Shown here in pieces: positions 2,618 through 8,088 of a stretch of DNA of 64,000 nucleotides (positions are counted from its first letter, which is position 1; the number at the start of each line of letters is the position of its first letter). Under the pieces are notes generated by a model, which was not told where the DNA came from, ran no database searches, and saw only the letters and a program-made list of their open reading frames with translations. A program made the position numbers and the translations under genes. Where the stretch lies: contig CM030338.1 of the NCBI GenBank assembly GCA_017654855.1, forward strand, positions 3,162,001 to 3,226,000. The letters are read 5' to 3'. The DNA is from Podospora anserina (lineage: Eukaryota).

Positions 2618-3172
2618 CTTTCTATCAAGGCATGGTTCAGAATATGATGTACATTGGCTTACTACTTGTACAACACCAATTATTCTGTCCACTGCAGGGG
2701 AGCAAGGCAAAAATACCAGTAACACATCAATGATGAGAAGGGCAATAGGGGTTATGAATCATAGCATTAACTCCCCTCCTCTATACATCCACTCAAATAT
2801 CCTAGCAGCCTCTGCCTCTCCTATCCTATCACCTCAACATCACCACCGCCTCCCTCTGTCAGTGATCAAACAGAAAAAAGAACAAACGCCTAGGTTCATG
2901 GTCCCGTGGTATATTAGAGCAGAATCTCATCAACAACTTCCCCATCATCTTACAACCCCCCTCCACCCAACTAACAACAAACAAATAACTAAACACCAAA
3001 AAACAAAAAGGGGTATGTAACAGTGATAAAACTTATGTGCAAAGATGAAAAAAAAACAACAACAAAAAAAAACAAAAAAACTCATCAGTCATACGCGTAC
3101 AAGATATGTCAAGACCGATAACAGTGGTTTGTGCAAAAGAAAAAAGAAAAAAAAACCCAACGAAGAAAAACC

Positions 3173-4860
3173 CTAAGCAGTCAAAGCAGGAGGAGGAACC
3201 GTCAAGTCTGGTACTTGCGGTTGCCCATCACCCTCACCACCCGAGGCCCCAGACATGGTAGGCGACGCCGGGGCGATTTCTGGATCGGGGATTTGAATAT
3301 CAAGCTATCCCGCAAAGTTAGCCATCTGCCACCCCATCCAACTCCCAAGAAGAAACAAGAACTCACACTCATGTACCCCGTCCTCCTCAAAGGCACAATC
3401 TTGGGCGGGATCACATTCCCCCCCTCATCCCCAGGGTGATCCGCCCTCACCGTCTTCTCCATCTCCTTATTCCACTCTTCAATCCACTTCTCCAACCCCT
3501 TCAGCCTGCTCTTCACCCCCGTAAGTCCAAAGTCATCCCACAACCACCCCGTCGCCAAACCGAGTACACCGTCCAAAATGTTCCTCCAGTTGTACGCGCT
3601 AAAGGCCGGCACGAGCTCGCTGTTGAGTTTTTCTATTACTCTCCTAAATTCCTGCTCGCTTACTCCTGCTGGGTCCAAGATGTCCGGGTAGAGGTTGGAG
3701 AACGTCGGGGCGAGGTCACCTTCCAACAGCCAGTCCCTACGGATGCGGATTATACGTGTGGTGGTGTATTCTGGCGAGTCTATCGGCACGTGAGGGTTCA
3801 GATGTGGGTAGCAGGGATGTTGGGGGCCCCATTCCTCGCCATTGTCAGGTTGCTCATCTGGGTCGCCCATGATGGAGGAGTCAGATGACATTTCGGAGCC
3901 GATGCCTGACATGCGGGAGGCCATGGACAGACGCGGGTTGGCCACGTCCGGCCCACGTTCCAGGTCGCGGGAGTAACGATCTCCTGCGCCGACATTGTTG
4001 TCCGGCTGGGACGGTAATGGTGGTGGCGCCATGACTTCTTTGCCTTTCCCTTTTCCTTTGCTGTCTCCCCTCTGGTGTTTCGCTGTCGATTGATCAAAAC
4101 TGAGACCGAATGGTACTCGAAGACGTGACGAGATGCTCTGGCTGTGGCTTCTGGTTTTTCGGAATTCGGACACGGAGAAGAGGTGCTGGGATGGGGGCTG
4201 TTGCCGCAAAAAGGATGGCCCTGGATAGCAAGCCTCGACCGGCGAGGGTGAAGGTGTGGCGCGAACCGATGGCGGAAGGCTGATGCGCTGCTCGGCGCCG
4301 GCGTTGCGTTCGAGGTGAAGACTGATTCGGTTTGAGATGGATTGACGCGGTCGCTGTTCGGGACTCTGTAAAAGTGGGTGCTCACCAGCGGCGGCCCTGC
4401 TGGGCTCCTCGGCAGTGGCAGGGGTAACTGTCAGCGGGACGGGCGGAGGAGGAGGTGAAGACGGAGCACGGCGTCTGCGAGCAGTGCCGTCGGAAGAGGT
4501 TGGTGTTCTCGGGGTCGAGTTGGTGGGGTTCCACAGACGGGCGGGCGAGGTTCGTTGGAGTGGTCGGTGGAAAGGGGTACCGCGGGTCCGGAATGGGGAC
4601 TGATCAGGGAAGGATGATTCCTGGGCGCTGGGTCGGCCCCGCCGTAACAAACTGCTTTTTCTGCGCAACGGCCGGCCGGGCGCTACTGGTTCGAATGGCG
4701 GAGCGGCGGGCGCGGGATAATCGAAGGGGTAAGGGGGCTGCTTGGTCGGCGGAGACGACAGACTCGTGTTTGTGTGCTGGGTCGGTTGGGCGGCGGTTGA
4801 CGCATCTAGGGCGGTATCTTGCTTGTGGGGGGGCGCGTGGGAAGCCGTCGGAAAGATGTT
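3173..4860 (-). CDS. ERF4: Ras palmitoyltransferase accessory subunit Erf4 (golgin A7 family); start uncertain (first AUG at 4032, frame open to 4860); intron 3305..3366
   Basis: EEWGPQHPCYPHLNPHVP..TTRIIRIRRDW..GDLAPTFSNLYP..IVPLRRTGYMS|LDIQIPDP matches filamentous-fungal Erf4. A GTGAGT..GCTAAC..TAG intron restores LDIQIPDP; stop TAG at 3173-3175. Confidence 0.85.
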
Positions 4861-5733
4861 CTAGGGATGGCCGTCTCGGGGACGGCCTCCTCTAGGTACA
4901 GAATGTGTAAGTGTCTGGAGACGGTGGGCAGGCGCAATCTTCGGCTGGTGCAATCTTCGGCTGGTGCAATCACAATCAGCTCATCAAAATTACTAGCAGT
5001 TAGTATCCTCCCTGCTAGTAAATCTTGTATCGCGCCTGTGGATTGCCGACTGCCAATCTTGTCGGAGTCGTGGCCCAGGGGGATAAACGATTGACAGTGG
5101 TTGGCGGCGTGGGATGCGGACTTGATGGAATACTCTCTAGAAATGAAAACGATTGGACTACGGGATAAATTGGAAATCGCTGTGATGGCCGACACAGCGT
5201 GACGCCGACCTTTGATTTGCGACGACGTGTTGGAGTGCCGCGGCTTTTTACACGTGCCACCCGGCGGCAGCTGGCGGCTGTGTCTATCTTGGCAGCACGA
5301 TCTTCATCAACACAACTTCACAGGATGGTCATCTTCGGGGGGTTAACTGATGAGTTTCATAGCTATAGCTTCGAGGCCAGAGACTTTTGAATTCATTGAG
5401 CCTCATTCACTTGCTAGGTAGACACTGCCTGATTTGTGTGTGTTCCACGTAGGTGGATCAGTCGTGTAATCGACATTCTTTGTCCGTTGTCTTTTTACGT
5501 AGAGGAAGAGTTCTTCTGCATCATTCTTTTTCATTTCGATTCTAGCACTTCAAGTCCGGGTTGATTGTTACATCTGAGACTCTATCGCGGAGTTGGTCGA
5601 GTCGAGTCGAGAGAAAACGTCAACTTCAAATTTGCCTGGAGAGCCAAACAGAAGAAACGTGAGCCATGCATGGCCTGGCTATAAGCCGGTCGACAATGCT
5701 CATAAAAAGTGATCCTAAAAAGGGTCTTGGAGC

Positions 5734-5877
5734 AAAAACAGAAAAAGAGTTCAGCCCTTGAAAGTGGAATCGAACCCGTCGGTTGATGACAGTCAGAACA
5801 CCTACGTATCTCTTTTCGGAGTGATCTGGTTTCGTGGGTAAACAGAGCGTACCATAATACCACTTGACCAAACCACC
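5734..5877 (-). ncRNA. tRNA-like Pol III unit or pseudo-tRNA
   Basis: A box TGGTCAAGTGG at tRNA position 8, perfect B box GGTTCGATTCC (5766-5776), upstream TATAA-like element near 5903-5907, downstream T5 runs; acceptor and T stems do not pair canonically. Confidence 0.55.
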
Positions 5878-6273
5878 CTCCGAGGCATTACCGCCCCGTG
5901 TTATATCTCTGCAAAATCCTAAACTATATCCCCCACGAGCCGTTCGACTGGCCGCTCCATTCCCATACTTGCTCACCGAGCAACAATTCTTCAACTTTGC
6001 AAGGGTATTTCTTTCCAAAACCTGCCCGCCTCTTTAATGTGCCCATTCCCACGTCCATGATGCTTTAAAATACAATGCGCGCCTACCAAGTGCAAGCAGA
6101 CAACCTGGAAGGAAGGTACATATCCAAAACTGCAACTAGGGTATCACCACAGAAATTCATTAGTGGGAACGTAACAGATCCCCCGCTGAAGATGTGGGGA
6201 AGGCGCCGGGAGGCCGGCACCTAACGCGGGACCCCGCAAAGCTTATTCGGGTGGGGAAAGAACGGGCAGGTCA

Positions 6274-8088
6274 ATGCCGTCACCCACCTCTCTCCAATTC
6301 TCTCGAAACTCAACTGTTGGTTCTTGTTCTGTTTATTCCTGTCACCATTATGACTTCTCCAACCGCTTTTTGAAAAAGATTTATTTTCTTGTTGTTGTTC
6401 CGTTCTGCTACATGCGTCTTGCCAGTATAATACCACCCATCGCTACGTCACGCCCTCCAGCTGAACCGAGACACTGGACATCCCTGCCATCACATCAAGG
6501 GAAATATTTCTTCCATATCCCAGTCATGAATCATCGCCTCAGACTCACGACCTCGTTGGACTCATGCCCTGGTCCAAGTTCCCAGGGCATATCAACGGCC
6601 CTGGAAACCATGCACGAGGAGTCGGAGTCTGTCCACTCCGGGCCCCGGTCACCAATGTCCGGTGGTACCGCCCCCAGCGCTTTCGAGGACGACCACGGCC
6701 GACGTCGAAGCTCCACTTTCTCAGTGTACAGCTTGAACGAAGCCGGGCGTGGCCTTCACGATGAGATTCTCGATCCAGGGCCGTTTATACACCGAAGCGA
6801 GGTATCATGGGGAGCGACACTTCCCTTAGTATTTGCCCTCCTCCCGGCACTGGTCGGGCTAGTCTTCAAAAACGGCAGCTCGGTTATCACCGACCTCATT
6901 TTGTTGGGGCTGGCGGCCGTGTTTTTGCACTGGTCGGTAACGGTGCCGTGGAAGTGGTATCATGCGTCACAGCAGGTTCGGGAGGAGGAGGGGTCGTTTG
7001 TGGAGAGTGCTTTTCAGGACGACAGCGGGAGCGATGATGCTGTCAGCCCTCGGCAACAGAACCCCGGGCCGGATGAACAACAGCCATCACAGCCAGATCC
7101 CCAGACCCGCAAGATGGACCGCCGCGCCAAAACCGCCAGCCAAGCCCTCACGCTGCTCGGTCTTCTGGAATGTGCCGCCTTGTTGGCTTGCTTTGTCGCC
7201 CCCGGGTTGGCGGCCTGGATGCTCCACCACGGCCGGAACCTTTTGTCGCGAGGCTCGGAGGGGTTGGTGTCAAACTTTAACCTTGTCATCTTTTTTATTG
7301 CGGCGGAGATATCGCCCGTGTCACACTTTATGAAGCTTATCCAGGCCCAGACGCTCCACCTCCAGAGACTGGTCCACAGCAACTCCAACCCCTACCGGCA
7401 GGAAAAAGTCACGATGAATCAATGGAGGGAGTTGATTGCGAGGTTGGATGAACTCGAAACACGGGGACTGACCAATGCTCCGTCACCAGTGGAGGCAGAC
7501 ACGAGGCGGGTGCATGCCAGTCTTGTCAGGGAGGTGAGGAATCAGATACAGCCTGATATTGATGCGTTGAATAGAGCGGTTAGGAGGTATGAGAAGAAGG
7601 CTAGGGTCCTGGCGGTGCACACGGAGGGGAGGTTGAGGGATCTGAGGCAGAGGGTGGATGATGCTATTAGCTTGAGTGCTGTTGTTGCGGGGAGGGGGCG
7701 GAAGGGGACGGAGTGGGATTTGGTGGGGTGGTGTTTGGGGGGGGCGGTTTGGGTTTTGATGTTGCCTGTCAGGGAGGTGATTAGGGGGTTGGCAAAGGTG
7801 TTGGCGGGTGTGGGGTGGTTGATGGGGATTAAGGAGGAGGGGGGGGATGAAGCCATGAGGGGGAAGAAGAAGGGGGAGATGGATGGATCAGAGGTAAAAG
7901 GGAAAGGGGTGGAGAGGGAGACGAGGAGGAGCGGGAGGGCAAGTGGGAGTGGTGCTAGTGGGGGGAATGGCGAGATGGATGGATCAGTGGTAAAAGGGAA
8001 AGGGGTGGAGAAGTGGATGAGTGGTGGTAGGAGTGGAAGCGGGAGTGGTGCCAGTGGGGGGAAGGGGTATCTTGGACGGAGGATGTGA
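6274..8088 (+). CDS. uncharacterised fungal multi-pass membrane protein with coiled-coil region (true start may be Met at 6526 or 6610)
   Basis: 604-aa ORF with several hydrophobic segments (LPLVFALLPALVGLVF, LILLGLAAVFLHWSV, LLACFVAPGLAAW) and a helical region (DIDALNRAVRRYEKK). Confidence 0.8.
   Translation: MPSPTSLQFSRNSTVGSCSVYSCHHYDFSNRFLKKIYFLVVVPFCYMRLASIIPPIATSRPPAEPRHWTSLPSHQGKYFFHIPVMNHRLRLTTSLDSCPGPSSQGISTALETMHEESESVHSGPRSPMSGGTAPSAFEDDHGRRRSSTFSVYSLNEAGRGLHDEILDPGPFIHRSEVSWGATLPLVFALLPALVGLVFKNGSSVITDLILLGLAAVFLHWSVTVPWKWYHASQQVREEEGSFVESAFQDDSGSDDAVSPRQQNPGPDEQQPSQPDPQTRKMDRRAKTASQALTLLGLLECAALLACFVAPGLAAWMLHHGRNLLSRGSEGLVSNFNLVIFFIAAEISPVSHFMKLIQAQTLHLQRLVHSNSNPYRQEKVTMNQWRELIARLDELETRGLTNAPSPVEADTRRVHASLVREVRNQIQPDIDALNRAVRRYEKKARVLAVHTEGRLRDLRQRVDDAISLSAVVAGRGRKGTEWDLVGWCLGGAVWVLMLPVREVIRGLAKVLAGVGWLMGIKEEGGDEAMRGKKKGEMDGSEVKGKGVERETRRSGRASGSGASGGNGEMDGSVVKGKGVEKWMSGGRSGSGSGASGGKGYLGRRM

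Follow-up and report, generated by a model that had tools for sequence, protein, structure and literature searches.

ERF4, on the minus strand of the 64,000-nucleotide (nt) stretch of Podospora anserina DNA analysed here (contig CM030338.1, positions 3,162,001 to 3,226,000; hereafter the window), probably yields two proteins from one messenger RNA (mRNA) through the choice of start codon: a long Erf4 beginning at a conserved ACG codon and a short Erf4 beginning at the AUG at 4032. Comparison with related sequences supports the original prediction that a long isoform would start at a near-cognate codon and a short one would arise by leaky scanning to 4032, and adds an upstream AUG (uAUG) with its short upstream open reading frame (uORF) to the presumed design. 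In yeast, the Erf2 palmitoyltransferase puts Ras on membranes and depends on Erf4 as an obligatory partner. If two Erf4 forms are indeed made in filamentous ascomycetes, one of them with a 272-residue conserved regulatory tail, a layer of control over Ras lipidation would be invisible in annotations. Database models disagree over the start of ERF4, and the two-start design is, judged from the sequences compared, most likely common in Sordariomycetes and missed by current gene models.

In the proposed mechanism, some scanning ribosomes would initiate at the ACG at 4848-4846 and produce a long Erf4 of ~537 residues (272 + 222 + 43 codons), in which a conserved, Met-free and apparently disordered extension of 272 residues precedes the Erf4 core. 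Ribosomes passing the ACG would then meet a weak-context uAUG in frame +1 at 4805, which opens a uORF of 40 codons and would be either skipped or translated with scanning resumed afterwards. These ribosomes would subsequently cross ~650-770 nt kept AUG-free and start at the good-context AUG 4032, giving a short Erf4 of ~265 residues, a protein shorter than the extension itself. Through the leaky uAUG and its uORF, the supply of ribosomes to AUG 4032 should be damped or tuned.

The N-terminal extension as coding sequence

The stop-to-stop open reading frame (ORF) extends on the minus strand from 4860 to 3202, with its 3' end reading into the intron. As originally described, its first 276 codons (4860-4033), bounded by the TAG at 4863-4861, contain no Met, and the 770 nt from 4802 to 4033 hold no ATG in any minus-strand frame. 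The minus-strand ATGs within 5600-3100 include those at 5307, 4984 and 4805 (frame +1), followed by 4032 (frame 0, GTCATGG). In 5000 dinucleotide shuffles, a mean of 2.7 ATGs was obtained for the 770-nt gap, with a probability of 0.045 for none, while the region 5304-4033 contains 2 ATGs against a mean of 8.6 in 3000 such shuffles (P(<=2) = 0.003). The probability of a frame open over 276 codons is 0.023, and the other two frames hold 3 stops each. By itself, the window sequence is only marginally unusual in its ATG gap and open frame, which is suggestive but not decisive. The recurrence of the same pattern in related sequences, described below, raises the ATG-free open frame far above chance.

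Searched against Pfam, the 498-residue exon-1 translation matches the Erf4/GOLGA7 family (PF10256) at residues 370-498 with an expectation value (E) of 1.5e-35 and a score of 122.1 bits compared with a gathering cut-off of 29.3, covering profile positions 1-114 of 116. The extension gave no Pfam match at E<=0.1 in the same search. Of 8000 candidates scored with the whole exon-1 translation as the query, 683 proteins reached E<=1e-3. The top 120 of these 683 all carry the Erf4 domain, those with a named source are from Sordariomycetes, and many cover 97-100% of the query. Extension identity across the homologues ranges from 46 to 88%, with invariant motifs: RLWNPTNSTPR, R.R..S.PPPP..P, PLL and Met277, the residue encoded by AUG 4032, are invariant or nearly so in an alignment of 12 sequences, and a further motif reads RRRxPSxPPPPxVPL.

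A scan of metagenome contigs gave 58 fungal loci, in 32 of which the match reaches query residue 110 or below. Judged by the best named protein match, the loci are Chaetomiaceae-, Coniochaeta-, Fusarium- (83%), Colletotrichum-, Verticillium- and Apiospora-like. In all 32 contigs the match from the extension to the Erf4 domain is colinear in a single frame, and the frame-breaking indels or stops that had been named as counter-evidence were not seen in these relatives; indels relative to the database models P0001 and P0003 also preserve the frame. When 15 non-redundant sequences are aligned by codon, pairwise differences at the first, second and third codon positions amount to 0.46, 0.38 and 0.66 in the extension and 0.27, 0.20 and 0.60 in the core, respectively, which is the synonymous-biased conservation that the original prediction had proposed to look for. 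The synonymous codons of the invariant extension residues vary freely in these sequences. Because the motifs are invariant, synonymous variation is free and third-position differences are in excess, the comparison identifies the extension as protein-coding sequence under purifying selection at the protein level. In the alignment, basic Ser motifs noticed by eye (RRKSSLLRRG and RRRRAPSSPPPPPVPL, at ~4660-4630 and 4480-4440 of the minus strand) resemble basophilic-kinase and proline-rich binding sites.

In 29 of the 32 contigs, the frame from the upstream stop, or from the end of the contig, to the ATG aligned with Met277 is free of ATG codons. The exceptions, L025, L026 and L043, represent one distant sequence with 37% identity and many out-of-frame ATGs, and on its evidence the ATG-free design is not universal in the Erf4 family. 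In this distant sequence, an in-frame ATG stands 33 codons ahead of the Met277 equivalent, with 6 out-of-frame ATGs upstream. The comparative set used in the following consists of 18 distinct sequences, i.e. the window and 17 fungal contigs, none of which (0/18) carries an in-frame ATG in the extension. A MAFFT alignment of 121 proteins contains only 4 internal Met in 30,203 extension residues compared with 611 in 29,946 residues downstream of Met277. Those 4 are distributed one each over the models P0014, P0019, P0034 and P0119.

The ACG codon and the proposed scanning path to AUG 4032

In-frame near-cognate codons are present in the extension as originally claimed, among them ACG 4848-4846, ACG 4767 and CTG 4761. 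The ACG at 4848-4846 forms the 5' edge of conservation and is invariant in 18/18 distinct sequences; it is thus the conserved near-cognate that was to be sought across relatives, while the CTG and TTG codons also named as potential starts are less likely ones. Its conservation is not a matter of the amino acid only. The Thr of the PTAS motif is encoded by ACG in 15/15 sequences, whereas two other invariant Thr residues (NPTNST) use ACG in 1 of 30 cases and otherwise ACC, ACA or ACT. Three sequences with variant motifs (L019, L046 and L053) likewise carry the ACG, which completes the 18/18. G occupies position +4 in all 18 sequences. No other near-cognate column in the extension exceeds 9/15 sequences, and these columns vary synonymously. 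Of 17 sequences, 12 have an in-frame stop on the 5' side of the ACG at a distance of 3-4 codons; the junction in the window reads TAG AAC ATC TTT CCG ACG GCT TCC. Each lineage has its own codons between stop and ACG, with none near-cognate in the case of L016. From these sequence comparisons, the long isoform would most likely start at ACG 4848-4846.

Downstream of the ACG, the distribution of ATGs is strongly skewed. Between the ACG and the Met277 ATG, 17 sequences contain 22 ATGs compared with 81 expected from shuffles, and 22/22 are in frame +1. In the set of 18 sequences, all 21 ATGs within the first 162 nt after the ACG are in frame +1, and beyond this point only 2 ATGs occur in 11,724 nt compared with 161 in 10,414 nt of the core. 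The same avoidance is visible at the wobble position. In the extension beyond +162, the ratio of NAT to NAC codons is 2:68 when the next base is G and 155:166 when it is not (Fisher 5e-15), while the corresponding ratios in the core (76:93 and 162:260, p = 0.16) show no bias. Because the wobble bias before G is absent from the core, AUG avoidance is confined to the extension, and by this test selection acts against out-of-frame AUGs in the extension alone.

In 17/18 sequences, the first ATG encountered beyond the ACG is a uAUG in frame +1, at a distance of 10-112 nt. Its -3 position is a pyrimidine in 17/17 sequences and its +4 position is never G, and the resulting uORF comprises 3-48 codons with a peptide that is not conserved. 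In the window, uAUG 4805 falls within the conserved ALDAS motif. At the end of the ATG-free stretch, Met occupies the Met277 column in 120 of the 121 aligned proteins, and its AUG has a purine at -3 in 18/18 sequences. The leader upstream of the ACG is also ATG-poor, with no ATG in the 300 nt upstream in 11/18 sequences. As a separate observation, the +1 frame from 5303 to 4806 (minus strand) is open for 165 codons without an ATG, and its closing TAG directly abuts the ATG at 4805 (UAGAUG). In five distinct relatives, L004, L008/L010, L023, L050 and L054, an upstream ATG opens a +1-frame ORF of 103-146 codons that extends beyond the ACG to a stop at +49 to +70. This stop adjoins the uAUG directly in L004 and L008.

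Immediately before the in-frame stop, a block of ~30-45 nt at 4890-4864 (minus strand; GGAGGCCGTC..GGC..) is conserved at the nucleotide level in 10 Sordariales-like sequences and ends at the stop. In frame 0 it reads GGRLGGR in most sequences, and the models P0001 and P0004 use another frame (EEAVS...). Since these models read the same letters in a different frame, the block is probably non-coding. It seems conceivable, although we regard it as unlikely, that the ACG in its poor context (pyrimidine tract, C at -3) is selected by a conserved and dedicated cis device. Such a device would consist of this block, the in-frame stop and the weak +1-frame uAUG, typically 52-67 nt downstream, at which slow initiation could queue scanning ribosomes over the ACG. 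The ratio of long to short Erf4 would in that case report scanning flux or initiation stringency, coupled to Ras palmitoylation, and the RRxS-type basic motifs of the extension, as recognized by eye, would permit kinase feedback.

Two other candidates were rejected. A hairpin at the start, in which GGAGGCCGUC (4890-4881) is complementary to GACGGCUUCC (4849-4840), was considered as the cause of the ACG invariance. RNAalifold on 10 sequences returned only a local stem of 6 pairs with 0 compensatory pairs, single-sequence folds were inconsistent (z = -3.3, -2.4, -1.0, +1.0 and +0.1), and in distant relatives ACGGCUUC is retained with the 5' arm missing. Readthrough of the stop codon by ribosomes started further upstream was likewise dismissed: the base after the stop varies, the 39 codons that separate the stop from the next one upstream in the window contain no in-frame AUG, and the models P0001 and P0004 translate the upstream block in another frame.

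Transcripts, gene models and alternative explanations

The transcript was followed in contigs of four runs from four studies. None of the sequencing runs listed for this place is catalogued as RNA, but these contigs represent RNA because the 3305-3366 intron is removed in all four (joint 3304->3367, CT..AC on the plus strand). In three runs the contigs are unbroken from 3367 to 5138, 5115 and 5167, respectively, while in X10 one contig reaches 4950 and is continued by an overlapping contig at 4948-5129. Over the leader, the spliced contigs of 4/4 runs contain no joint, indel or listed base change; over 3367-4950, each of the four contig pieces carries '1 other letter' at an unlisted position. 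A spliced upstream exon, which had been named as a finding that would overturn the prediction, was not seen, since the contigs are colinear from 3367 to 5115-5167 in all runs. Nor is a transcription start site (TSS) close to 4032 indicated, as RNA cover reaches at least 250 nt upstream of TAG 4863, although contigs of this kind cannot fix the TSS, prove single molecules or exclude rare forms. Two relatives, L019 and L047, lack the 3' intron, which identifies them as complementary DNA (cDNA), and are colinear over leader and extension. L047 shows the stop-then-ACG arrangement, and L019 has no ATG at all upstream of the uAUG. Short RNA contigs of low depth also lie 5' of the leader (X1 and X3 at 5372-5534; X5 at 5955-6130, with G>A at 6039), which could reflect a minor upstream start or another transcript.

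The starts of the 120 database models are scattered: 83 lie 2-219 residues (median 56) upstream of the ACG column and 37 inside the extension, some of the latter coming from ORF callers that possibly write M for non-ATG starts. At least two models begin at an out-of-frame uAUG and contain an invented intron. In P0002, the closest Podospora protein with 96% identity to the window, and in P0030 (Staphylotrichum), the uORF peptide of frame +1 comes first and is followed by a switch to frame 0; the P0002 model runs from the out-of-frame uAUG over 4805-4764 and needs a 164-nt intron (4763-4600) to enter the ERF4 frame, and the first residues of P0030 are the uORF peptide of its near-identical contig L003.

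Several points weigh against a start at the ACG and two isoforms from one mRNA. With 83/120 database models starting at an ATG that precedes the ACG column, an upstream AUG may be in use in some species, and Neurospora and Sordaria models lack the PTAS motif and begin with MLGNI.... The ACG itself has C at -3 in 17/18 sequences, not the purine expected for an efficient near-cognate start. A hydrophobic-hydrophobic-Pro pattern with varying codons is found two or three positions before the ACG and could mean that translation begins slightly upstream; L016, with no near-cognate codon between stop and ACG, appears to speak against this. Furthermore, the continuity of the RNA contigs falls short of proving one continuous molecule, and translation of the two isoforms is inferred from sequence comparison and RNA contigs.

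The alternative that fares best is that the extension is translated from another non-AUG codon, the candidates being AUC 4857-4855, which closely follows the stop, and, further downstream, ACG 4767 and CUG 4761. With A at -3, AUC 4857 has a better context than ACG 4848 (C at -3), and weak conservation is apparent in the positions immediately before ACG 4848. However, none of the three codons is conserved: the codons from stop to ACG differ in every lineage, and the competing near-cognate columns reach at most 9/15 and vary synonymously. A start at 4767 or 4761 would in addition leave the invariant ACG GCU UC untranslated and would fall downstream of the uAUG. We therefore consider another start codon quite improbable.

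It is very unlikely that a minor spliced or alternatively started mRNA supplies an in-frame AUG, for instance through the P0002-type combination of a uAUG 4805 exon with the intron 4763-4600. The P0002 and P0030 models, which open with the uORF peptide before entering frame 0, would agree with such an mRNA, and rare variants get dropped from contigs. On the other hand, the RNA contigs of 4/4 runs are colinear over 4600-4763 and 4863, with the P0002-type intron not seen in any of them and the real intron removed in the same contigs, and the cDNA contigs L019 and L047 are colinear there as well. The P0002-type intron would also delete conserved coding sequence (QPxYP, SLLRRG), and an alternative mRNA leaves the AUG avoidance over the whole extension unexplained.

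Equally poor is the case for the extension being a relic in the window, where only the 265-residue protein from AUG 4032 would be made and an ancestral AUG would have been lost too recently for the frame to decay. Many models of relatives have an in-frame upstream ATG, and in the closest named relative, Triangularia setosa (P0001), the frame is continuous to an ATG. Yet the stop-then-ACG arrangement without an in-frame ATG occurs in at least 12 diverged sequences, so that the window is no special case, and it retains all the invariant motifs together with an intact ACG, uAUG and ATG-free stretch; the frame-preserving indels relative to P0001 and P0003 also argue against decay. Finally, C-to-U RNA editing of the ACG into AUG, known from plant organelles, would equally require an invariant ACG, but no base change is listed there in 4/4 RNA contigs (partial editing would escape contigs), we know of no precedent for C-to-U start editing of fungal nuclear mRNAs, and this explanation is hardly credible.

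Related systems and anatomy of the locus

The closest known parallel to a start at ACG 4848-4846 is cpc-1 of Neurospora crassa (CPC1 in Pezizomycotina), which has a conserved N-terminal extension of ~180 residues translated from near-cognate starts, with ACG in 98/100 species (Ivanov et al. 2017, PMC5487733). As described there, A and G occupy positions -3 and +4 of the cpc-1 ACG, respectively, three near-cognates are conserved, and initiation at near-cognates was shown in vitro and by ribosome profiling (PMC5487733). Both genes have an in-frame extension upstream of the main AUG, no in-frame AUG in it and a deeply conserved ACG. Both also have a uORF situated downstream of the near-cognate and overlapping the extension in another frame, so that a start at the near-cognate would bypass the uORF. 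The main AUG of cpc-1 is reached by scanning or reinitiation, to which the presumed initiation at AUG 4032 is likened here. In contrast to cpc-1, a basic leucine zipper (bZIP) factor, ERF4 encodes a palmitoyltransferase subunit, has one conserved near-cognate instead of three, and carries C instead of A at -3 of its ACG, with G at +4 in common. The ERF4 extension is also longer (272 compared with ~180 residues), and an in-frame stop stands 3-4 codons before the start in most lineages. While initiation in cpc-1 was shown experimentally, the ERF4 ACG is a start codon proposed from sequence comparison.

For IDI-4 of Podospora anserina, a CUG start was proposed (Dementhon et al. 2004, as cited in PMC5487733). 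This places a proposed non-AUG start in the genus of the closest named relatives of the window, but the codon is CUG and not ACG, and a single product was proposed, not two. Among animal genes, a PTEN proteoform starting at AUU in the 5' leader appears by title in the reference list of PMC5487733. In dual-start genes of this type, as presumably in ERF4, a weak non-AUG codon gives a longer proteoform and a downstream AUG the canonical one, with an AUG-poor region in between. FGF2 and MYC are further animal dual-start genes with non-AUG upstream starts. Unlike these unrelated genes of another kingdom, ERF4 has an AUG-free stretch of ~650-770 nt in which selection can be demonstrated at the wobble level.

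Within its own family, ERF4 is placed by its C-terminal core, whose PF10256 match clearly exceeds the gathering score. The yeast (Erf4) and human (GOLGA7) members are short proteins, and to our knowledge they lack the 272-residue extension. A literature search found no paper on a non-AUG start or N-terminal extension of ERF4, and the words erf4, palmitoyl and golgin do not occur in the main text of PMC5487733. Mechanisms of this kind are already known; ERF4 adds an unusually long extension and unusually clean comparative support. The locus combines an invariant ACG, a control by synonymous codons and wobble-level AUG avoidance limited to the extension, and is therefore a good test bed for start-codon stringency in fungi.

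Table 1. Features of the ERF4 locus on the minus strand (window coordinates).
Feature	Position	Remark
Exon 1	3367..5167 (-)	Extent of spliced RNA contig cover; 5' limit approximate
Minimal leader uORF AUG AGC UGA	4976..4984 (-)	AUG context weak, U at -3
Nucleotide-conserved block GGAGGCCGTC...	4864..4890 (-)	Directly 5' of the in-frame stop; apparently non-coding
In-frame stop TAG	4861..4863 (-)	4 codons separate TAG from ACG
ACG, proposed start codon of the long isoform	4846..4848 (-)	Context ccgACGg; no other near-cognate column is fully conserved
N-terminal extension after the ACG	4033..4845 (-)	271 codons, Met-free, conserved as protein
+1-frame uORF	4683..4805 (-)	uAUG 4805-4803, weak context uagAUGc, 40 codons, stop TAG 4685-4683
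Conserved AUG, proposed start of the short isoform	4030..4032 (-)	Met277 of the open frame; good context gtcAUGg
Remaining exon-1 coding sequence, common to both isoforms	3367..4029 (-)	Erf4 domain at ORF residues 370-498
Intron	3305..3366 (-)	62 nt, GT..AG; joint 3304->3367 in 4/4 runs
Exon-2 coding part	3173..3304 (-)	43 codons and stop TAG 3175-3173; LDIQIPDPEIAP... as in homologues

Around the gene, a tRNA-like sequence at ~5770-5880 was checked with ARAGORN, which found 0 genes in 4500-7000. In the 3' untranslated region, a T-rich low-complexity stretch at 3040-3161 was skipped as a repeat in read placement, with RNA contigs present on both of its flanks.

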